In this document: positions 1-9,072 of the stretch, piece by piece
How positions within the stretch are numbered: position 1 is the first letter of the stretch
How the letters are laid out: every line of letters starts with the position of its first letter
Assembly (NCBI GenBank): GCA_045643205.1
Contig: JAZUKI010000008.1
Coordinates: 1 to 63,274, forward strand
Direction: 5' to 3'
Origin: Clostridia bacterium
GTDB lineage: Bacteria; Bacillota; Clostridia; TANB77; CAG-508
Length of the DNA: 63,274 bases
Notes under the pieces: model-generated
Databases searched by the model: none
The model's input: only the letters and a program-made list of their open reading frames with translations
What the model was told of the DNA's origin: nothing
Translations under genes and position numbers: made by a program

Positions 1-462
1 TTAGTATATGAATTTGTAAATGGAAGACTTAATAATATTAATTTTAATAAATTTGGAAAAATTTTATTGAATATAATTGAAATTATTGGATTTGCAAGTA
101 TTTTCTTTATTGTAAATACAAAAAATTCACATGAAAAATATGATTATATTATGTTGGTGATTTTATTTGTTTGTATATCTATTGGATTTTCAAATAAAAC
201 ATATACAGGAAAAATGTTATCTAATAAATTTGTTTTTTATCTAGAAAAATTAAGCCTTCCTATATATTTAACACATAATACAGTTATAAGAATAATTAAT
301 AAAATTCTTATAGCTAATAATATAACAATGAATTTTTATTTAATATTATTAATAACAATAGTTGCAACAATTATTATTTCGATATTGGAATTACAGTTAA
401 TAAAAATAATACCACATCTAAAATCATTTACTAAAAAACTTTTAGTAGAAAAAGAAGCTTAA
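1..462 (+). CDS. Acyltransferase-3 (OafA-like) membrane O-acyltransferase, C-terminal part, truncated by window edge
   Basis: Frame open from base 1; multiple TM segments; LEKLSLPIYLTH resembles the family LGxxSYxIYLxH motif; next to glf. Confidence 0.6.
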   Translation, partial: LVYEFVNGRLNNINFNKFGKILLNIIEIIGFASIFFIVNTKNSHEKYDYIMLVILFVCISIGFSNKTYTGKMLSNKFVFYLEKLSLPIYLTHNTVIRIINKILIANNITMNFYLILLITIVATIIISILELQLIKIIPHLKSFTKKLLVEKEA

Positions 463-498
463 TATTAATAAAAGTATAGAAAAAGAAAGGTTTGATAG

Positions 499-1593
499 AT
501 GAAATATGATTATTTAATAATAGGCACAGGATTATTTGGTGCAACATGTGCTAATTTATTAACTAAAGCAGGAAAAAAAGTATTAGTTATTGATAAAAGA
601 CCAAATGTTGCAGGAAATATCTATACTGAGAATGTTGAAGGTATTCAAGTTCATAAATATGGAGCTCATATATTTCATACTGATTATAAAGATGTATGGG
701 AATATGTTAATTCATTTGTTGAGTTTAATAGATATACTAATTCACCAGTAGCTAGAATTGGAAATGAAATATATAATATGCCATTTAATATGAATACATT
801 TTCTAAAATGTGGGATGATGTTTTCACACCTGAAGATGCAATGAGACATATTGAAGAAGAAAAGAAAGAAATAGATCACGAGCCACAAAATTTAGAAGAA
901 CAAGCAATTTCATTAGTAGGTAGAACTATATATGAAAAACTAATTAAAGGTTATACTGAAAAACAATGGAACAGAGATTGTAAAGATTTACCTGCATTTA
1001 TAATTAAGAGATTACCAGTTAGATTGATTTATGATAACAATTATTTTAATGATAAATATCAAGGCATTCCAATTGGCGGATATACTAAACTAGTTGAAAA
1101 AATGTTAGATGGTATAGAAGTAAGACTTGATACAGATTTCTTTGAACATCCAGAATTAAGAGAAGAAGCAGAAAAGATTATATATACAGGACCAATAGAT
1201 GAATATTTTAATTATTCATTAGGTGAACTTGAGTGGAGATCTTTAAAATTTGATACACAAGTTTTAAATGAGAAGAATCATCAAGGTAATGCTGTTGTTA
1301 ACTATACAGGACATGAAGTAGATTACACTAGAGTAATTGAACATAAACATTTTGAATTTGATACAGAAAGTCCAAAGACAGTAATTACATATGAATATCC
1401 AGCTGACTATGAAAAAGGTATGGAAAAGTTCTACACAGTTAATGATGATAAAAATAATGAATTAGCAGAAAAGTATAGAGAATTAGCTGCTAAGGAAGAA
1501 AATGTTATATTTGGCGGAAGATTAGCTGAATACAAATATTATGACATGGATGATGTAATTAAATCAGCAATGGATTGTGTAGCTAGACAATAA
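499..1593 (+). CDS. glf: UDP-galactopyranose mutase
   Basis: YDYLIIGTGLFG FAD motif, HKYGAHIFHT, YTEKQW, GRLAEYKYYDMD. Confidence 0.97.
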   Translation: MKYDYLIIGTGLFGATCANLLTKAGKKVLVIDKRPNVAGNIYTENVEGIQVHKYGAHIFHTDYKDVWEYVNSFVEFNRYTNSPVARIGNEIYNMPFNMNTFSKMWDDVFTPEDAMRHIEEEKKEIDHEPQNLEEQAISLVGRTIYEKLIKGYTEKQWNRDCKDLPAFIIKRLPVRLIYDNNYFNDKYQGIPIGGYTKLVEKMLDGIEVRLDTDFFEHPELREEAEKIIYTGPIDEYFNYSLGELEWRSLKFDTQVLNEKNHQGNAVVNYTGHEVDYTRVIEHKHFEFDTESPKTVITYEYPADYEKGMEKFYTVNDDKNNELAEKYRELAAKEENVIFGGRLAEYKYYDMDDVIKSAMDCVARQ

Positions 1594-1638
1594 TCATAAT
1601 AGATTATAAAAAATAAATACATTTAATATTAAAATAGG

Positions 1639-1683
1639 AAACCACCGATAGCATTAATAATTATTTAATGCTGTCGGTGGTTT
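1639..1683. terminator. Bidirectional intrinsic terminator between convergent glf and the 128-aa ORF
   Basis: AAACCACCGATAGCATTAA / TTAATGCTGTCGGTGGTTT, 19-bp stem with A/T tails. Confidence 0.85.
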
Positions 1684-1708
1684 TGGAAACTGCAGAAAAA
1701 GATTTAAG

Positions 1709-2095
1709 TTACAGATTCTGAAGTGGCTTTAAATAAACAAGGCACAGCCTTTCTTCGGCAACGCTGTGATCATCATATGGATTATTATTGATCTCAGCAA
1801 CGGTGGTCCAATTACCTTCATAGAGAAGCTCAAAAAAATCAGCTTCATCAATAAGGTTATCCAACATTGTCTGGCTCACCAGCAAAAATGGAATACCATC
1901 AGAGACTATGAAGTCACGTCGCAAAATATCAACTTCCTTTATATAGGAATCTGCATTTGCTTTTTTACGATAGTACTCTTTTTTGGCAACCTCATCAGCT
2001 GGTTTTGTTGGAAGATTCTTAATCTTCTCCAAACGATCCCGCCGTTTTCTTAAAATCTTAAGCAATGAATCCTTTTCTTTTGTTTCATAGTTCAT
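1709..2095 (-). CDS. Hypothetical protein (128 aa orphan)
   Basis: Strong RBS AAGGAGGG upstream of ATG; own promoter and terminator; no family recognised. Confidence 0.75.
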   Translation of the reverse strand: MNYETKEKDSLLKILRKRRDRLEKIKNLPTKPADEVAKKEYYRKKANADSYIKEVDILRRDFIVSDGIPFLLVSQTMLDNLIDEADFFELLYEGNWTTVAEINNNPYDDHSVAEERLCLVYLKPLQNL

Positions 2096-2196
2096 AGTAA
2101 ACCCTCCTTAATAATTTTTTTTGCCTTATCAAAGTAGCCGATAAGGAAGATACTAGTTGGAACATAAACATAAAAAATAAATGTTTATAGTACACA

Positions 2197-2225
2197 AGTA
2201 TACCATATATTTGAAAAAATGTATA
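2197..2225 (-). promoter_or_regulatory. Putative sigma-A promoter of the 128-aa gene
   Basis: Minus strand TATACA-17 bp-TATACT with TG extended -10. Confidence 0.55.
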
Positions 2226-2272
2226 GATATGTAGAGATGATTATATTTAGAAGAATAATAAATGAATATAAA

Positions 2273-2322
2273 AAGAGACAGAAAGCAAAAGAACTTCTTC
2301 AGTTCAATTGCTACTGTCTCTT
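2273..2322 (-). terminator. Long imperfect hairpin, likely terminator of the RT transcript (possibly part of the ncRNA)
   Basis: Plus-strand pairs AAGAGACAG/CTGTCTCTT, AGCAA/TTGCT, GAACT/AGTTC; U-run follows on the minus strand. Confidence 0.7.
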
Positions 2323-2354
2323 GTATAGACAATTTACATCAACAGATAAATCTA

Positions 2355-2511
2355 GCACTGGGTGTGCTTTCATTAGGCAATTAGCTGGTAGCGGTCGGAG
2401 AAGAGATTTTGCGATTCAGAAACTTAAAGTTTTCCACAAACTAAAGAGAGCAAAATCTCGACTAACCCAGTGAATTGAGTTATGAATCAATGACATTGAT
2501 CCAGGCACTGG
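2355..2511. ncRNA. Candidate RT-associated structured ncRNA (msr/msd-like), strand uncertain
   Basis: CACTGGGT 2356-2363 / ACCCAGTG 2465-2472; GAGATTTTGC 2403-2412 / GCAAAATCTC 2450-2459; small hairpins TGCTT-TCATT-AGGCA and GCT-GGT-AGC; ATCAAT-GAC-ATTGAT; GC-richer than flanks. Confidence 0.55.
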
Positions 2512-2599
2512 TTTCGTATGTTTAAATATAAATGTAAAATACATTAAGTAAAATACTTAGTAAATCACATAATTTAAATCAATGAAAATGCCGTTACAT

Positions 2600-3640
2600 T
2601 CATCGTGCTGATTGTAAAATTGTTTTTACCGAAGCTTCAAAGTTAACATTTGTTTTCTTTTCATATTTTTCAATGATAGATGCTATGAAGCTAGGTTCTA
2701 TGCATCTATAATAAGACATAAGGCCAAGCAACTTAGATAATTCAGAAGCAGACCACATCTTACCATTTTTTAAATCCATGAGAAAGCTCCAAAGTTTTGC
2801 TTTGAGATATTGTTTCTTCTTGCTACCGATTTTTGGTCCGTAACAGCCAATAGAAACACCTAAAACCCATACATTAGTTTTATTCGATAGCAGACATTTG
2901 CATTTGTCTTGGTTTAATGCAAAATTGTATTTTTTTAAACATGTACTTAGTACAACTCTTTTTTCATTAAAATTTTTGTACGCTCTAGGCAGAGTAGAAT
3001 AATAAATATCATCTGCATACCGAGTATACGATGGATCATCCTGCCAAAGTTTTAAATCTAGCGGTAATATTGCTAAATTAGAAAACAAAGGGCTAGTCGG
3101 AGCACCTTGTGGAAGTCTGTAATCATCATTGTAGTAGATCATACATGAAGCAACAATTGTTTCTAGTTTATTAAGATCCATTAAACAAAATGGATATATT
3201 ATAGATAAACTATTCATTATTACATTAATAGTACAACTACCAAAGAAATCTTTGATATCGAATCCCATAATGCAACGTGCACCCAAATGTTTAGTAACAG
3301 CATTAATCGTCGATTTTCCTGGAACATAAGCATACACAAAATTAGGAAATAAAAATTTGAAATTGTGAACAAAATAATGATTCACTTCTCTCATATATTT
3401 TTTTAATTCTTCATCTGGTATGTCTATACGCCGTAATTTTCCACTACGTTTCTTTTTGTAGTAGGTAGTATAGTGACTGTTTACATCGGTGCTTAAAATT
3501 TCTAAAGCACGCATGTACAAATAATCTACTTGTGCGGAAAAGCTTTTTACAAATCTAATATTTTTATTAGTGAATTCTTCTACGAATTCGGTGTAAGTTT
3601 CATCATCTTTTTTATTTTTGTAAGTAATAATGTATGTCAT
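2600..3640 (-). CDS. Retron-like RNA-directed DNA polymerase (reverse transcriptase)
   Basis: KKRSGKLRRIDIP (RT0/1), YAYVPGKSTINAVTKH (region X-like NAxxH), DIKDFFGS, LPQGAPTSP, YTRYADD, VWVLGV (region Y-like VTG); RBS AAAGGAG. Confidence 0.93.
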   Translation of the reverse strand: MTYIITYKNKKDDETYTEFVEEFTNKNIRFVKSFSAQVDYLYMRALEILSTDVNSHYTTYYKKKRSGKLRRIDIPDEELKKYMREVNHYFVHNFKFLFPNFVYAYVPGKSTINAVTKHLGARCIMGFDIKDFFGSCTINVIMNSLSIIYPFCLMDLNKLETIVASCMIYYNDDYRLPQGAPTSPLFSNLAILPLDLKLWQDDPSYTRYADDIYYSTLPRAYKNFNEKRVVLSTCLKKYNFALNQDKCKCLLSNKTNVWVLGVSIGCYGPKIGSKKKQYLKAKLWSFLMDLKNGKMWSASELSKLLGLMSYYRCIEPSFIASIIEKYEKKTNVNFEASVKTILQSAR

Positions 3641-3763
3641 AGAAGACTCCTTTCTATAGTTATGAAGTTTAGTATTGAGTAATTATAGATTTATTATAGA
3701 TGCATATGAACTTGTCATTATACTGACAAGTTGTTTGTCAATGTTCTAAAAGAACGTGTTTAC

Positions 3764-3792
3764 ATAATATCACAAAGATAGACATTTAACAA
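3764..3792 (-). promoter_or_regulatory. Putative sigma-A promoter of the RT gene
   Basis: Minus strand TTGTTA-17 bp-TATTAT with TG extended -10; implies a ~120-nt leader. Confidence 0.55.
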
Positions 3793-3882
3793 TAGAGTTT
3801 TTAATAATTGCAATATTATATAAAGTTATATAGTATTTTTATTATTGTTGTGATAAAATACAAAACTAGAGCAAAAACACAT

Positions 3883-3958
3883 GCTGGTATAGCTCAGTTG
3901 GTAGAGCACGTGTTTCGTAAACATGAGGCCATGAGTTCGATTCTCATTGCCAGCACCA
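3883..3958 (+). tRNA. tRNA-Thr (anticodon CGT)
   Basis: 76 nt cloverleaf: GCTGGTA acceptor, TAGCTCAGTTGGTAGAGC D-arm, TT-CGT-AA loop, GTTCGATTC T-loop, encoded CCA. Confidence 0.96.
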
Positions 3959-3981
3959 ATTTTATTGAAAGAGGTATTAAA

Positions 3982-5220
3982 ATGGACGATAAAATTTTTA
4001 AAGATTATGAATCTGAAGTTAGATCATATTGCAGAAAGTGGCCTGTAATTTTTACTAAGGCTAAAGATGCAATTATTACAACTGAAGATGGTAAAGAATA
4101 TATTGATTTTTTTGACGGAGCCGGTGCGCTTAATTATGGCCACAATAACAGCTACATCCAAGAAAAAGTTATTGAATATATTAAGAGTGATGGAATAGTT
4201 CATTCACTTGATATGTATACTAAGGCAAAACAAGAATTTTTAGAAAGTTTTACTGAGAATATTTTAAAACCAAGAAACTTAAATTATAAAATTCAATTTC
4301 CTGGACCTACTGGAACTAATGCAAATGAGGCTGCTTACAAGCTAGCTAGAAAAGTTAAGGGAAGAAGTAATATATTCGCGTTGATGGGATGTTTTCACGG
4401 AATGACTTTAGGTTCTTTGGCTTTGACAACTGATAAAGGTGGAAGAGGCGGAGCAGGTGTTCCTCTTTATGGAGTTACTCATATTCCTGCACCATACATG
4501 TTAGATACAATCAAATATTTACGTACAATTCTTTCTGATGATCACAGCGGAATTGAACTTCCAGCTGCTATTGCTATTGAAACAGTTCAAGCAGAGGGCG
4601 GAATTTATGTACTTGATACAGAGTTTTTAAAAGAACTAAGAAAACTTTGCGATGAATATGGAATTTTATTAATCGTTGATGATGTTCAAGTTGGATGCTC
4701 TCGTACAGGAACATTCTTCTCATTTGAGCGTGCAGGAATTGAACCTGATATTGTTACTATGAGTAAATCAATTGGAGCTTATGGACTTCCATTTGCATTG
4801 ACTTTATTCAAACCTGAACTTGATGTTTGGACTCCAGGCGAGCATAATGGAACTTTTAGAGGAAACAATTTAGCCTTTGTTGCTGCTAAGGCTGGTATTG
4901 AACTTACAATTAATGAAAAGATTGGCGATGAAGTAAAACGCAAAGGTACTATCATTGAAGAATTTTTAAATAAAGAGATTAAACCTATTTCTGATACAAT
5001 TGAAATTAGAGGTATTGGAATGATTTGGGGTATCGATGTTAAAGAAGGTGATCTTGCTAAGAAGATTGCTGATAAATGTTTTGAAAAAGGATTAATTATT
5101 GAGAGAGCTGGTAGAGGAGATGATGTTGTTAAGATTATGCCAGAGCTATTAATTCCAGATGATATTATGATGAAGGGATTAGAAATAATTAAGGAAGCAA
5201 TAGTAGAGGTTATTGGATAA
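3982..5220 (+). CDS. ectB: Diaminobutyrate--2-oxoglutarate transaminase (class III PLP aminotransferase)
   Basis: ESEVRSYCR, GAGALNYGHN, GPTGTNANEAA, DDVQVGCSRTG, MSKSIG, PGEHNGTFRG; start moved to ATG 3982 after RBS GAGG because the longer ORF overlaps the tRNA. Confidence 0.9.
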   Translation: MDDKIFKDYESEVRSYCRKWPVIFTKAKDAIITTEDGKEYIDFFDGAGALNYGHNNSYIQEKVIEYIKSDGIVHSLDMYTKAKQEFLESFTENILKPRNLNYKIQFPGPTGTNANEAAYKLARKVKGRSNIFALMGCFHGMTLGSLALTTDKGGRGGAGVPLYGVTHIPAPYMLDTIKYLRTILSDDHSGIELPAAIAIETVQAEGGIYVLDTEFLKELRKLCDEYGILLIVDDVQVGCSRTGTFFSFERAGIEPDIVTMSKSIGAYGLPFALTLFKPELDVWTPGEHNGTFRGNNLAFVAAKAGIELTINEKIGDEVKRKGTIIEEFLNKEIKPISDTIEIRGIGMIWGIDVKEGDLAKKIADKCFEKGLIIERAGRGDDVVKIMPELLIPDDIMMKGLEIIKEAIVEVIG

Positions 5221-5250
5221 TTAATAAGCAAATTAATTTTACATAATTTG

Positions 5251-5279
5251 TTGCCAAAATGCCTATTTTATACTATACT
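5251..5279 (+). promoter_or_regulatory. Putative sigma-A promoter of the 212-aa gene
   Basis: TTGCCA-17 bp-TATACT. Confidence 0.6.
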
Positions 5280-5298
5280 AGTTCTATCAATTAATTTC

Positions 5299-5372
5299 AT
5301 ACAGAGTGGGAATCCGCTAGATTATTGACATTTGCACAAGAATATCTAGTCGGAGCCCTGTATCCTCCGACT
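5299..5372 (+). promoter_or_regulatory. Structured 5' leader with two mutually exclusive folds
   Basis: Long stem ATACAG..GGG..TCCG.CTAGAT / ATCTAG.CGGA.CCC.TGTAT versus perfect 8-bp AGTCGGAG/CTCCGACT. Confidence 0.5.
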
Positions 5373-5399
5373 TAAAGTGAATACTAAGGAGGAAAACAT

Positions 5400-6038
5400 A
5401 TGAAAGTATTCAGTGTTGCTGGTCGTCTTAAACAAGACGATGATGATTTCGGATCTGTTAAATTTGATGGATTTTTTTCTTTAGATGAAAATAGTTCAGA
5501 AATCAAGGGAAGTTTAAAAGAATTTTTTAGTCAGCATGAGGAAAATAGGTTTATCTATGGAAAGTACGATGAGTCCAGTAGTAGAATGGCATTCTTTATT
5601 ATGACCAATAGTACAAAACTTTCTCCTATTCTTTGTGTTTTTTCAAATCTAAGAGAAGAAGGTATTTGGTCCGCGTACTATTTACCAGATAAAGGATTTT
5701 TTCCTAGTTCGGAACCAGATGGGAATATTGAAATAATCCTGAAAGCTAATTCAAAGAGCAGTAATGAAGTAATAGAAGAGTACGATTTACTTGCTCAGAA
5801 TATTACTCAACTAAATGAAGAGCTTATCAAGTCAGGTGTAGATTACTATACAGAAGGCCTTGATATAGCAGGTGTTTATGATTTTAATTATGCTGCTAAT
5901 TGTAAGGCTAATTCTAATCATAATAGTTACGATCCTAGGTTTAGTTGGCTACCGAAATATTCAAAAGAGTTCGATAATTTGGATGATGATTTTGAGGACG
6001 ATGATGAAGATGATGACTATGATGAATATTTTGATTAA
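5400..6038 (+). CDS. Hypothetical protein with very acidic C-terminal tail
   Basis: RBS AAGGAGG; DDDFEDDDEDDDYDEYFD tail; no family recognised. Confidence 0.8.
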   Translation: MKVFSVAGRLKQDDDDFGSVKFDGFFSLDENSSEIKGSLKEFFSQHEENRFIYGKYDESSSRMAFFIMTNSTKLSPILCVFSNLREEGIWSAYYLPDKGFFPSSEPDGNIEIILKANSKSSNEVIEEYDLLAQNITQLNEELIKSGVDYYTEGLDIAGVYDFNYAANCKANSNHNSYDPRFSWLPKYSKEFDNLDDDFEDDDEDDDYDEYFD

Positions 6039-6101
6039 TTTAATTAATCTAATTTATTTAATTAATCTAATCAATCGGATTTAATGACAACTGAGTATTT
6101 T

Positions 6102-6139
6102 ACAAAGTGAGCAAGATTTTGCTCACTTTGTTTTTTTTT
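6102..6139 (+). terminator. Intrinsic terminator
   Basis: ACAAAGTGAGCAA/TTGCTCACTTTGT, 13-bp stem plus T-run. Confidence 0.9.
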
Positions 6140-6182
6140 GTTTTATAAACTTCGGTTAAGCGGGATATTTATTTGTTTTATA

Positions 6183-6211
6183 TTGAACATAGGCTAAAAT
6201 CGTGGTATAAT
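6183..6211 (+). promoter_or_regulatory. Putative sigma-A promoter of the 269-aa gene
   Basis: TTGAAC-17 bp-TATAAT with TG extended -10. Confidence 0.7.
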
Positions 6212-6292
6212 GTCGCCTAACTTTTATTTGCAAATCCTTAGGGTATTTCAACTTGGGACAACAGCAAAAATAATTTTTTAGGAGGTAAAAAA

Positions 6293-7102
6293 ATGAAAGT
6301 GGAAAGTAGTAAGCAAGAGGAGCGGCAGCTCGCTGAAAGAGAGTTGCAGGTGTTTATTAGTACAAAGGCAATGGAAATTCCAAAAGGAATGAAATTGATA
6401 GCTGTGGATGAAAAACCACAGAAGGAAGTGGAGTTCGAAATTCAAAATTTCATTGCTATGGCAGATAAACAAAATGTTTATTCAGAGGATGGTGATCTAA
6501 TTGCATTTATCTACAACGAGAAATACTATGTTGCAGGAAAAACAGACAATGCTATTTCGATTTTAAAAAGAAATCAGTTTGTGTCAAAGAATTTTTACAT
6601 TAAGCTGTTGAGTTATCTTCCTGCGGAAAAACAAAAACAACAAAGAGTATTTCAATTGTTAGAAGATGCGGCGAAGGCTCATGAAGATGAATTTCGCTGG
6701 TATTGTAAGAAATGGGCAATGACCAAATCAGTTTATCCTATTTCATCAGAAGCTCTCAAAAATTGTTTTAAGATTCCAAGAAAAGGAATCAGAGTAAGGC
6801 AACCTGATGGAAACGCATACTATGCTCCAATAGTCTCGTACATGAATCGAGATGAAGTGGGAGTGCTTGATTGTATCGGCCAGTATGCTGTACTTGGGAA
6901 AATTACGTTTTTTGTGCATGCTGATAGCGACACCTACGTTGCTAAAGGTAATCACATAATTAATGTTTTGAAGGCTAATGGTTATAAGCCGGAACTGGTT
7001 CTGACTTATCAAGAAGAATTCAAAATTTTGGATGAAGAGTACCAGAAAATTTGGGAAATGATTCCTGAAATAAACGATTCTTCGATAGAAATAACGAATT
7101 GA
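6293..7102 (+). CDS. Hypothetical protein with an internally duplicated domain
   Basis: RBS AGGAGG; two similar segments ending YYVAGKTDNAISILKRNQF and TYVAKGNHIINVLKANGY. Confidence 0.8.
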   Translation: MKVESSKQEERQLAERELQVFISTKAMEIPKGMKLIAVDEKPQKEVEFEIQNFIAMADKQNVYSEDGDLIAFIYNEKYYVAGKTDNAISILKRNQFVSKNFYIKLLSYLPAEKQKQQRVFQLLEDAAKAHEDEFRWYCKKWAMTKSVYPISSEALKNCFKIPRKGIRVRQPDGNAYYAPIVSYMNRDEVGVLDCIGQYAVLGKITFFVHADSDTYVAKGNHIINVLKANGYKPELVLTYQEEFKILDEEYQKIWEMIPEINDSSIEITN

Positions 7103-7122
7103 TAATTACTGCTTTTTAATTT

Positions 7123-7158
7123 AAGGAAAGGTTAGCAAATGCTAGCCTTTCTTTTCTT
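7123..7158 (+). terminator. Intrinsic terminator
   Basis: AAGGAAAGGTTAGCA/TGCTAGCCTTTCTTT. Confidence 0.8.
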
Positions 7159-7213
7159 ATATAAATGAAATAAGAACAAAAATAAAAATGCAAGGTTATA
7201 AAAAGTTAAATAT

Positions 7214-7242
7214 TTGACAAAAAATGGAAAAATAGATATAAT
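7214..7242 (+). promoter_or_regulatory. Consensus sigma-A promoter
   Basis: TTGACA-17 bp-TATAAT. Confidence 0.8.
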
Positions 7243-7283
7243 AGATCTTACATAATTTTTTGAACATCTGGAGGTATAGCAAG

Positions 7284-7538
7284 ATGAAAAAAACTATAAT
7301 TGTAGAAGGACCTAAAGGAATGCGGGCGATATCTGAGATTACATTACAAATTTTAGAAGTTTGTGGTGTTAAAGATGAAATAAAAATTAAAAGCTCAGAT
7401 GATATTAATTATAAAATCTCAATCAAAAAAGGCATAGAAGTCATTCAAATTGAAGTAAAGAATGTGCATCTAAATAAAGATGTTAGAGATTTTTTAATTA
7501 CTCTGCAAGCAAATCTTCATGAGAGGTCAGAAAATTAA
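7284..7538 (+). CDS. Small hypothetical protein (84 aa)
   Basis: RBS GGAGGT before ATG 7284; flanked by promoter and terminator. Confidence 0.7.
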   Translation: MKKTIIVEGPKGMRAISEITLQILEVCGVKDEIKIKSSDDINYKISIKKGIEVIQIEVKNVHLNKDVRDFLITLQANLHERSEN

Positions 7539-7560
7539 TTTTTTTCATTTTATGATGTAG

Positions 7561-7590
7561 AGAAGTGGAATAATAATTCCACTTCTTTTT
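7561..7590 (+). terminator. Intrinsic terminator
   Basis: AGAAGTGGAA/TTCCACTTCT plus T-run. Confidence 0.85.
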
Positions 7591-7695
7591 TATTTTTATA
7601 TTTCAGTTTGGTGTCATTTGTGTTGATATTAGTGAAATTTTTAATTTGCAATGCTATAATCTCAATGCAAATTTATATTTTTTTAGGAGGACAAA

Positions 7696-8583
7696 ATGGA
7701 TTTAGAAAAACTTCAAGTAATGAAAGATGGAAGAGGATTTATTGCTGCTCTTGACCAAAGTGGAGGATCAAGTGCTAAGACTTTATTAAGATATGGTATT
7801 AGTGAAGATAGTTATTCAACAGAAGAAGAAATGTTTAATCTTATTCATGAAATGAGAAAAAGAGTTTTTACAAGTTCAGTTTTCAATAATGAACATATAG
7901 TTGGTGCTATTTTGTTCTATAAAACTATGATGGGAAAAGTTGATGATGAATTTACAGCTGATTATTTATGGAACAAGAAACACATTGTTTCTTTCTTAAA
8001 GGTAGATAAGGGATTAGAAGAAGAGACTAACGGAGTTAAGCTAATGAAAGAAATTCCTGACTTAGATGAGCAACTTGCTGAAGCAAATAGCAAAAATGTT
8101 TTTGGAACAAAGATGAGAAGTGTTATTTATTCTGCAAATGAAGAAGGAATCGCTGCAATTGTAGATCAACAATTCGCATTTGCAAAACGTATCTGCGATG
8201 CTGGTTTAGTTCCTATTATTGAACCAGAAGTTGATATTAATGCAGTTGATAAAGTAGAATGCGAAACAATATTAAAACAAAAAATTGAAGAAAAATTAGC
8301 TACATGGAATGAAGATGATTTAATTATGTTTAAATTTACAATTCCAACAGAAGCAAATAAATATTTAAGTTTATATGATAACAAAGCTGTTGTTAAAATT
8401 GTAGCACTTTCAGGTGGATATGAATTAGATGTAGCTTGCGATTTATTAAGCAAAAACGAAAACATGATTGCAAGTTTCTCAAGGGCTTTACTTGGAGGAC
8501 TTACAGCACAACAATCACAAGAAGATTTTGATAATACACTAAACGAAACAATTATGAAAATCTATACAGCTTCAATTGAGTAG
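7696..8583 (+). CDS. fda: Class I fructose-bisphosphate aldolase (Staphylococcus Fda type)
   Basis: GFIAALDQSGGS, FLKVDKGL, GTKMRSVI, PIIEPEV, VALSGGY, ASFSRAL. Confidence 0.95.
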   Translation: MDLEKLQVMKDGRGFIAALDQSGGSSAKTLLRYGISEDSYSTEEEMFNLIHEMRKRVFTSSVFNNEHIVGAILFYKTMMGKVDDEFTADYLWNKKHIVSFLKVDKGLEEETNGVKLMKEIPDLDEQLAEANSKNVFGTKMRSVIYSANEEGIAAIVDQQFAFAKRICDAGLVPIIEPEVDINAVDKVECETILKQKIEEKLATWNEDDLIMFKFTIPTEANKYLSLYDNKAVVKIVALSGGYELDVACDLLSKNENMIASFSRALLGGLTAQQSQEDFDNTLNETIMKIYTASIE

Positions 8584-8617
8584 TTAAATAATTAATAAAA
8601 ATAAACGAAAACGAAAA

Positions 8618-8670
8618 TAAAAGAACCCTTATAAAATGGAAAAAATTTCATTTCATAAGGGTCCTTTTTA
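8618..8670. terminator. Bidirectional terminator between fda and the convergent orphan
   Basis: ACCCTTAT..AAATG / CATTT..ATAAGGGT long imperfect stem. Confidence 0.7.
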
Positions 8671-8694
8671 GTTGTAATTATACAAACTAAAGTA

Positions 8695-9072
8695 CTATGC
8701 GTAATTTTTTTTAGGCGGAATAGCTTTAAAAAATGCAAACCACTCGTTTCTAAAAGCTTCTGAAAATTCAGGGGTTGCAATTTGATCTACTATCTGTGGA
8801 AAGTTATTAATATTTTTTAAAATTTGATCTTTCCACTTTATCAATTCATTTGGCAACTTTGGATTATTTGGTTCAAAGCTATTATGTCCAGATTCTATGT
8901 CACATTTCATCAAATGGACGAACATTACAAGGTCGAGTGAATCTACTGTGTCAGGTACATAATTTCCTAAATGTTTGATGAATGAAAATAAATATCCATC
9001 AATAGGATCTTTACAAAGTCTGTTCGCATGTAAAAGCGAATTCCTTGCATTAAAAAATTTCATTTGTTTCAT
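8695..9072 (-). CDS. Hypothetical protein (~125 aa orphan)
   Basis: RBS GGAGGT before ATG at 9072; promoter TTGACA-16 bp-TATAAT at about 9151-9178 on the minus strand. Confidence 0.7.
   Translation of the reverse strand: MKQMKFFNARNSLLHANRLCKDPIDGYLFSFIKHLGNYVPDTVDSLDLVMFVHLMKCDIESGHNSFEPNNPKLPNELIKWKDQILKNINNFPQIVDQIATPEFSEAFRNEWFAFFKAIPPKKNYA

Follow-up and report, generated by a model that had tools for sequence, protein, structure and literature searches.

The 63,274-nucleotide (nt) stretch of contig JAZUKI010000008.1 from a Clostridia bacterium (assembly GCA_045643205.1), here called the window, probably encodes a stand-alone retron of a distinct lineage whose parts stand in permuted order: a promoter, a reverse transcriptase (RT) gene, an msr-msd-like noncoding RNA (ncRNA) and a terminator, all read along the reverse strand. 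The RT is placed with the retron RTs, the RNA behind it has the architecture of a retron RNA, this architecture recurs in related loci together with a covarying hairpin, and a single contig from an RNA library spans both the RT gene and the RNA. We consider the combination to be new, namely a retron with a permuted RNA that overlaps the RT stop codon, with no conserved effector, and in a clade shared with RTs of viral contigs. An earlier note on this DNA, made from the sequence alone, had described a retron-like RT followed by a structured RNA and lacking an effector, and had proposed an RT-ncRNA module of another kind, the complementary DNA (cDNA) product of which would be undescribed. Most of the description stood, with the corrections given below. 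The proposal was not supported, as the RNA has the standard retron plan, in textbook form in the viral-contig relatives.

The reverse transcriptase is of the retron type

The RT gene is intact and its product matches the Pfam family RVT_1 (7.5e−17). The motifs named in the earlier note, YADD, NAVTKH (region X) and VLGV (with the VLG of region Y), are all readable in the translation, and in an alignment of 37 family members residues H118 and G261 are nearly invariant. Database matches also agree with the note in calling the protein retron-like. The best 25 of 56 matches to PADLOC models are all to retron RT models, with RT_II-A (137.2 bits) and RT_III-A (129.2 bits) at the top, and the best NCBIfam model is retron_St85_RT (NF038233; 157.9 bits, 3.2e−46). 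All 12 sequence matches in PDB are retron RTs, the best being the Retron-Kva2 RT (4e−18) and the Ec86 RT being among them. The RT also matches the phage family phrog_2825 (139 bits). The RT_Ec107-like profile, at 116.4 bits, ranks fifth for the window RT rather than first, and it gives 92 to 107 bits for the three family relatives L270, L271 and L009 that are described below.

Other groups of bacterial RTs fit far less well. Among defense-associated RTs (DRTs), Drt2 is the sole NCBIfam model listed for the window RT, at 28.2 bits against a cut-off of 390; a match to a DRT equivalog model, as expected of a DRT or unknown-group (UG) defense RT, is thus lacking. The group II intron RT-maturase model TIGR04416 gives 58.6 bits against a cut-off of 300. 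A scan of positions 2000 to 4000 for the template and variable repeats of a diversity-generating retroelement found only imperfect direct repeats of at most 24 nt, and no neighbor of the RT gene has a Pfam match to an Avd-like protein. Judged by its sequence, the RT belongs to the retron lineage and is not a member-level match for any described type, because the profile scores favor retron models yet fall under the curated or member scores.

A structured RNA begins inside the RT gene

Behind the RT lie about 330 nt of GC-enriched, strongly folding noncoding sequence that are closed by a terminator. The GC content is 37 to 40% over positions 2281 to 2520 versus 18 to 26% in neighboring intergenic DNA. 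The reverse strand of positions 2096 to 2620 folds with −126.7 kcal/mol (z = −7.66; 0 of 100 shuffles as good), whereas the opposite strand gives z = −4.79, and the G-U pairs of the RNA helices agree with the strand of the RT. The earlier note had placed structured DNA after the stop codon; the structure is there, but it starts within the last seven RT codons (5′ arm at 2595 to 2623).

The predicted structure (Table 1) is closed by a helix of two arms, a1 and a2, the first of which contains the end of the RT coding sequence, including the stop codon. Taken alone, the a1/a2 duplex has −21.6 kcal/mol (z = −5.1; 0 of 500 shuffles as good). Enclosed between the arms are an AU-rich hairpin region, a stem-loop that we call SLc, and a long branched stem with an 8-bp base helix (2465 to 2472 with 2357 to 2364) and a perfect 10-bp inner stem (2450 to 2459 with 2403 to 2412). 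As a predicted structure, the succession of closing helix, short hairpins and long stem corresponds to the plan of a retron ncRNA, and we presume that the long stem is the template for reverse transcription. Candidate priming G residues lie at 2591 and 2592, 3 to 4 nt past a1, a position that is not significant. The 8-bp base helix had also been considered as the a1/a2 pair and was dropped, since the closing helix of the relatives starts at the RT stop codon.

The terminator-like hairpin that the earlier note saw at the end of the region is present as a long hairpin followed by a U-run. A simple terminator scanner did not list this hairpin and flagged a smaller one at 2354 to 2368 instead. Searches of positions 1 to 9000 with Rfam (E ≤ 1) returned no RNA family for the region and no intron RNA, the only matches being a tRNA-Thr and chance-level ones. 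In blastn, the RNA and the leader of the RT mRNA had only chance matches in all other loci compared and a single 25-nt chance match in GenBank phages.

In the standard retron cassette, msr-msd lies upstream of the RT (PMC6868368; PMC7736814) in one transcript with it. Here the RNA (2329 to 2623) is downstream, and the upstream leader folds weakly (3630 to 3882, reverse strand; z = −1.64, 10 of 200 shuffles as good; this value is preferred to the z = −3.7 obtained for the window with 12 shuffles).

Table 1 Features of the RT locus in the window
Feature	Position	Strand	Basis
Retron-type RT, 346 amino acids (aa)	2600-3640	−	Open reading frame (ORF) list, Pfam RVT_1, PADLOC, NCBIfam, PDB
a1 arm of closing helix: last 7 RT codons, stop codon (2600-2602) and 5 nt beyond	2595-2623	−	Minimum free energy (MFE) pairs
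AU-rich imperfect hairpin region, msr-like	2504-2592	−	Folds; length differs among relatives
Conserved stem-loop SLc, 9 bp, AAUGUYAUU at tip	2483-2503	−	Alignment, covariation
Branched long stem, msd-like, presumed template	2357-2472	−	Inverted repeat, helix scan, folds
a2 arm of closing helix, 6 nt ahead of terminator stem	2329-2354	−	MFE pairs, duplex test
Intrinsic terminator: long hairpin (stem ends 2275 and 2320), then U-run	2268-2322	−	Sequence, folds
Promoter-like −35/−10 pair, TTGTTA-17 nt-TATTAT, TG before −10	3764-3792	−	Consensus match 9/12
5′ leader of RT mRNA, two small hairpins	3641-3757	−	Fold and RNA contig 2334-3736
Orphan 128-aa ORF with strong ribosome-binding site	1709-2095	−	Outside the conserved module
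tRNA-Thr (CGU), divergent from RT, cassette edge	3883-3958	+	Rfam 71.4 bits; ARAGORN

The RNA plan and one hairpin recur in the RT family

About 38 protein clusters share 36 to 58% identity with the RT. DNA was compared for three members of this family (L009, L270 and L271), which have 38 to 41% RT identity and come from the same bacterial order as the window genome. L009 is the only close relative among the matches listed in the scans of genome and metagenome contigs, and L270 and L271 come from genome searches. The family was found in 4 of 401 genomes sampled in the order; another sample of 400 genomes of the order added no members to these four, and none of 43 other genomes of the genus has a relative of the RT at E ≤ 1e−25.

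In L270 and L271, the stop codon of the RT is where a helix of 11 to 12 bp starts, which is closed after 255 and 292 nt, respectively. The parts follow in the order a1 across the stop codon, SLc, a long-range helix equivalent to that of the window (10 bp in L270, 11 bp in L271), a2 and terminator. In the third relative, L009, a1 is closely similar in sequence and the span is 275 nt, but the RNA precedes the RT and has a consensus promoter (TTGACA, 17 nt, TATAAT) and a terminator to itself. In all three relatives, as in the window, the terminator comes at once after a2. The z values of their closing helices are −5.3, −6.3 and −7.0.

SLc with its AAUGUYAUU tip is present in all four RNAs. All 36 cells of its alignment are paired and 4 of the 9 pairs show two-sided changes, with a covariation score of 0.704 versus 0.247 for shuffled alignments (0 of 500 as good). 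The motif with at least 4 extra flanking pairs occurs at 6 places in 1.78 Mb of other loci (window excluded), and 3 of the 6 are the three relatives. Within the window, the motif occurs 5 times and only the copy at 2489 to 2497 has such flanking complementarity (by inspection). SLc is the signature of the family, and it is likely the hairpin that the RT recognizes. Mapped reads from near-identical strains differ at one position of the RNA (G2393A) and hence hold no covariation information. Beyond SLc, the likeness of the four RNAs is one of plan and position, not of sequence.

The downstream RNA described in the earlier note is upheld, and it has counterparts in the three relatives. The earlier note had proposed to look for conserved structure downstream of the RT in homologues, and the outcome is mixed: it is found there in two of the three relatives, whereas in L009 it is upstream, without an effector. 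Just ahead of this upstream RNA (L009, about 3385 to 3402) a reading frame gives VKKLCS, which matches the conserved C terminus of the family RTs (for example, SVKKLLCS-stop in L271). We infer that VKKLCS is a relic of an RT gene. Because it precedes the upstream RNA, RT-then-RNA would be the older order, with L009 rearranged.

The family belongs to a clade with RTs of viral contigs

In a quick IQ-TREE tree of 90 RTs, the window family comprises 37 rows (support 99) and joins two groups containing viral-contig loci in a 62-row clade (Shimodaira-Hasegawa-like approximate likelihood ratio test, SH-aLRT, 100; stem length 1.35). The kinship with retron-like phage RTs that the earlier note suspected is upheld by this grouping. 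A tblastn search of GenBank phages with the RT matched 39 records, all at <30% identity.

The arrangement seen in the window extends to several of the viral-contig loci. An automatic scan for helices of 7 bp or more, with their start between −12 and +35 nt of the RT stop codon and a G behind it, flagged 15 of 97 loci. Flagged loci made up 7 of the 12 scanned loci in the clade versus 3 of 28 outside it, and 13 of those 28 have an upstream equivalent. Eight flagged loci that were folded gave textbook retron RNAs (a1 and G, then short hairpins, one or two in number, then a long hairpin, then a2), seven of them in the clade (L091 to L094, L099, L103 and L110) and one, L105, outside it. Mean fold z values over 250 nt, a measure that needs no such helix criterion, were obtained with 12 shuffles per sequence from related loci that are not independent and show a corresponding difference: −5.36 downstream versus −1.68 upstream in the clade (n = 15), and −1.74 downstream versus −4.18 upstream outside it (n = 24). 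Canonical relatives outside the clade have their structure on the upstream side.

Several of these loci have features of their own. In L105, a viral contig that does not belong to the 62-row clade, the textbook RNA occupies positions 4826 to 5010, directly 3′ of the RT stop codon. Repeated origin of the downstream arrangement is one possible explanation, an unsure placement of L105 in the tree (end branch 1.42) the other. Seven viral and metagenome contigs (L089 to L094 and L169) share a conserved row of genes extending about 3.5 kb to either side of the RT. Ahead of the RT are ORFs of about 490, 270 and 230 aa, the last of which is a ThiF-family protein in L093, and behind it are ORFs of about 140, 135 and 450 aa, the last being an SNF2-type helicase in L093. 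A row of this kind looks more like a module for phage DNA metabolism than like a defense island. Beyond the retron-like RNA, L169 (about 5071 to 5192) and L094 (about 450 to 600 nt past the RT stop codon) have a second hairpin, which is very long and nearly perfect, with perfect arms of at least 17 bp and a span of about 120 nt. In the viral contig L127, a hairpin at about 3075 (+) has the same AAUGUUAUU motif with 10 flanking pairs, a distant RT relative being located about 770 nt upstream of it.

One RNA-library contig spans the RT gene and the RNA

A contig from one metatranscriptome run (2334 to 3736) comprises the leader, the RT gene and the RNA, and ends just short of the terminator. This hints that the RT and the downstream RNA are co-transcribed. 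A second contig of the same run (1672 to 2142) holds the 128-aa ORF that follows the terminator. The run has no cover at 2152 to 2245 and 3750 to 3843, where DNA runs have cover, although these uncovered parts do not count as evidence of absence; contigs from two DNA runs cross 2166 to 3117 and 2217 to 2576, through the terminator.

The earlier note had given the RT its own promoter and a leader of about 120 nt. The extension of the RNA-library contig to 3736 is consistent with a leader of at least 96 nt. The promoter stays at the level of a consensus match. A scan found 18 promoter-like sites versus 14.3 expected from shuffles, so the match by itself is not significant, and a better-scoring match sits at 3710 to 3682. 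Because the RNA contig reaches 3736, transcription would start upstream of that position, which fits the weaker match at 3792 to 3764 and not the better one.

Evidence against a permuted retron

A number of observations weigh against reading the locus as a permuted retron. With respect to the protein, the 157.9 bits on retron_St85_RT are under the curated cut-off of 235 (as are the 209.3 bits of the viral-contig relative L093), and the scores of the window RT are far lower than the 352 bits that a bona fide type III-A relative, L172, reaches on its own model. Retron RTs are defined by NAxxH in region X and VTG in region Y (PMC7736814), whereas the window RT has NAVTKH, with 3 residues between A and H, and VLG.

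With respect to the RNA, the SLc hairpin and the four RNA sequences were picked by eye, which favors SLc. When the four RNAs were aligned over their full length with MAFFT, only SLc came into register, and this in three rows; nhmmer, given a profile of the RNAs of the three relatives, missed the window RNA, the best matches being elsewhere (E > 2). As neither program finds a wider sequence likeness, homology of the whole RNA rests on architecture and one hairpin. A neutral scan for a closing duplex was weak for the window (z = −3.2) and for most viral-contig loci (z of only −0.0 to −1.7), and it discriminated poorly. The scan for a helix followed by G also flagged 7 of 97 loci at a control position inside the RT gene, and the G at 0 to 3 nt after a1 in the four family loci is not significant in such AT-rich sequence. 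The clade-wide fold values carry the small shuffle number and the relatedness of the loci mentioned above. Finally, the transcript evidence consists of assembled contigs from one RNA run, which give no strand, ends or level and whose library could hold DNA, and the msDNA (multicopy single-stranded DNA) product of the locus is a predicted one.

The effector question and alternative explanations

An all-against-all BLASTP comparison of the ORFs around the four family loci linked only the RTs. As the earlier note had stated, there is no maturase, Cas1 or Avd, either among the RT neighbors, which have no Pfam or PADLOC match, or as a gene shared by the four loci; the same holds for an effector. 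The effector gene or RT-fused domain of the tripartite retron types I to XIII is thus lacking here. The 37 aligned family RTs are 343 to 457 aa long, and a search among proteins of 607 to 2000 aa returned no fused relative at E ≤ 1e−20, which is weak evidence.

The absence of an effector, as the earlier note had it, needs one qualification. None is recognizable or conserved, but a same-strand ORF of 128 aa does follow the terminator. It could be the effector of a three-part retron, restrained by a complex of RT, RNA and possibly DNA, given that most retrons carry an effector (PMC7736814), that the ORF starts 170 nt past the terminator with a strong ribosome-binding site, that the RNA-library run with the RT contains it too, and that its GC content of 35 to 41% is higher than in the flanking host genes, which would suit acquired DNA. 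The ORF is, however, an orphan. Database-wide searches returned a near-identical 70-aa fragment of it and two weak relatives (E = 9e−5 and 1e−3), the Pfam, PADLOC, PHROG and NCBIfam libraries have no match, and a protein atlas search gave no usable one. Neither the three related loci nor any other locus compared contains it, and it sits behind the terminator on a separate RNA contig, which has a higher word depth than that of the RT. Its AlphaFold2 model is poor (predicted local distance difference test, pLDDT, 55.7). Nothing ties the ORF to the RT, and we regard its role as an effector as quite improbable. Given the raised GC content, both may have been acquired on one small segment, with the ORF as its cargo.

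Two further explanations keep the RNA and the RT but change what the RNA does. The structure could be a 3′ untranslated region (UTR) element that acts in mRNA stability, termination or autoregulation of the RT and is not a template, in which case the RT would have some other substrate or be inactive. We hold this to be the least probable of the alternatives. The apparent co-transcription with the RT, the terminator at the end, and a 5′ arm across the stop codon that would suit translational control are all compatible with it. Against it, the RNA of L009 lies upstream with its own promoter and terminator, which makes it a separate RNA gene retained next to the RT; the compensatory changes in SLc and the variable long stems match what is seen in retron templates; and the catalytic motifs of the RT are intact. 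Alternatively, the RNA could be the cognate partner of the RT while the product is not canonical branched msDNA but an unbranched, protein-primed, repeated or conditional cDNA. Such a product would suit an RT on a long branch (stem length 1.35) that scores under the curated retron cut-offs and has variant X and Y regions, at a locus with no effector for msDNA to restrain. There are precedents for parts of it, as type VI retrons are described as lacking detectable msDNA until triggered (10.1101/2025.10.22.683967) and DRT3 as needing an ncRNA downstream of the RT (PMC8632793). Nevertheless, DRT models score far lower (28 bits for Drt2, with its cut-off of 390), the RNA follows the retron plan, and the sister RNAs of viral contigs have a G directly after a1. 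Reading frames that start at the AUG of the SLc loop have 26, 25, 64 and only 4 codons in the four loci, and because these frames differ there is no conserved peptide like that of the type VI hybrid RNA. A conserved small peptide in the RNA was likewise rejected as a candidate in its own right, the frame of L009 having only 4 codons. We therefore consider a non-canonical product unlikely, if less so than the two other alternatives.

Proposed mechanism

We return to the permuted stand-alone retron as the preferred explanation. Its simplest version is an ordinary retron mechanism with a permuted gene order and an msDNA-like product, because the plan is standard and the viral-contig relatives show it right after the RT stop codon. 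We propose that one transcript carries both the RT and the ncRNA. Its 3′ part would fold such that the a1/a2 helix, with the last RT codons and the stop codon as its 5′ arm, encloses the AU-rich hairpin, the putative recognition stem-loop SLc and the long branched stem. The RT would bind the conserved hairpin in the 3′ part of its own transcript, a G beside a1 would prime as in other retrons, and the long stem would, by analogy with these, serve as template for a single-stranded DNA resembling msDNA. As a1 belongs to the coding sequence, ribosomes that terminate at the end of the RT would open the closing helix and unfold the RNA, and translation and RNA folding would alternate on one molecule. 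The overlap with a1 predicts that the C-terminal codons of the RT are under double constraint. The module would function without a dedicated effector.

We also conjecture, with much less confidence, that this holds for the clade as a whole, on viral (phage-borne) contigs and on the small-genome chromosomes of gut Bacillota: the mRNA that encodes the RT would hold the template in its 3′ UTR, a1 would lie in conserved C-terminal codons, and each mRNA would switch in cis between translation and reverse transcription, with no toxin effector. If this doubtful generalization were true, the clade would not serve in defense of the toxin-antitoxin style, and its DNA or RNA-DNA product could be an anti-defense decoy or have a part in phage DNA metabolism.

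Comparison with known systems

Canonical retrons such as Retron-Eco1 (Ec86) and the type II-A group of Mestre et al. (2020) share with the window a retron-lineage RT, an a1/a2 helix, short hairpins and a long stem. They differ in that msr-msd is described as upstream of the RT in the former, whereas in the window the ncRNA follows the RT and has the last RT codons in common with it. Moreover, the window has no NDT-like or other effector, and its RT scores well under the member level. Stand-alone cassettes, in which a retron RT and an ncRNA occur with no associated protein, have been reported for RT clades 2 (Ec107-like) and 11 (PMC7736814), and the Ec107-like group is said to occur mostly in host-associated Bacillota (PMC13712802). 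The window resembles these cassettes in composition, but the clade 2 profile is only the fifth-best match of its RT and its RNA is downstream.

The order of parts has a synthetic counterpart. In engineered inverted operons, a promoter, a ribosome-binding site, an RT and an ncRNA follow each other as in the window, and such RT-then-ncRNA operons are reported to make RT-DNA for many retrons (10.1101/2024.01.25.577267), so an RT-first order is workable. Those operons were built for standardization, whereas the order in the window is natural, recurs in a clade, and has a1 fused into the RT coding sequence. DRT3 (UG3/UG8) also has a required ncRNA 3′ of the RT gene according to PMC8632793, in the same position as the window RNA. 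It is, however, a two-RT system of another RT lineage with a different RNA, and the Drt3a model is unlisted for the window RT; it gives 67.9 bits for the viral-contig relative L093. The viral retron-like RT clusters RTC3 and RTC5 (hLife 2024, PMC13681634) are phage-borne, which is akin to the grouping of the window RT with viral contigs. The consulted text of that paper mentions neither an associated RNA nor its position, and the window RT could not be mapped to its clusters.

No natural retron with the ncRNA behind the RT turned up in full-text literature searches, which covered neither supplements nor subscription papers. Retron surveys that look only upstream may miss RNAs of this kind. The de novo step of the SPIRE survey, as described, used only the 600 bp upstream of the RT (PMC13712802), and Mestre et al. 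report that the ncRNA was not found in large sub-branches of RT clades 3, 7, 8 and 9, nor at all in clades 4 to 6 (PMC7736814). A clade with its RNA behind the RT and joined to the stop codon could account for some of these ncRNA-less branches, and it provides a simple rule for finding more. The arrangement raises the questions of how the last codons of the RT are translated while the template folds on the same nucleotides, and of what role a retron without an effector has in phages and in bacteria. Natural RT-first cassettes may also be compact, self-contained producers of single-stranded DNA for editing tools, as the RT-first order is already preferred by engineers (10.1101/2024.01.25.577267).

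Surroundings of the locus

The tRNA-Thr gene forms the edge of the cassette on the promoter side. Synteny on the side of the tRNA-Thr and the aminotransferase gene is not conserved in the genus (the aminotransferase query was one base out of frame), and because of this the borders of an insertion cannot be set. Two ORFs further along the window are orphans with respect to these libraries: one of 212 aa (5400 to 6038, +) has a long acidic D/E tail and no match in Pfam or PADLOC, and one of 269 aa (6293 to 7102) is likewise unmatched. In the contigs of two DNA runs, a 15-nt AT-rich insertion occurs at 3818, between the RT promoter region and the tRNA-Thr, and the same contigs have a small rearranged joint at 3870 to 3902.

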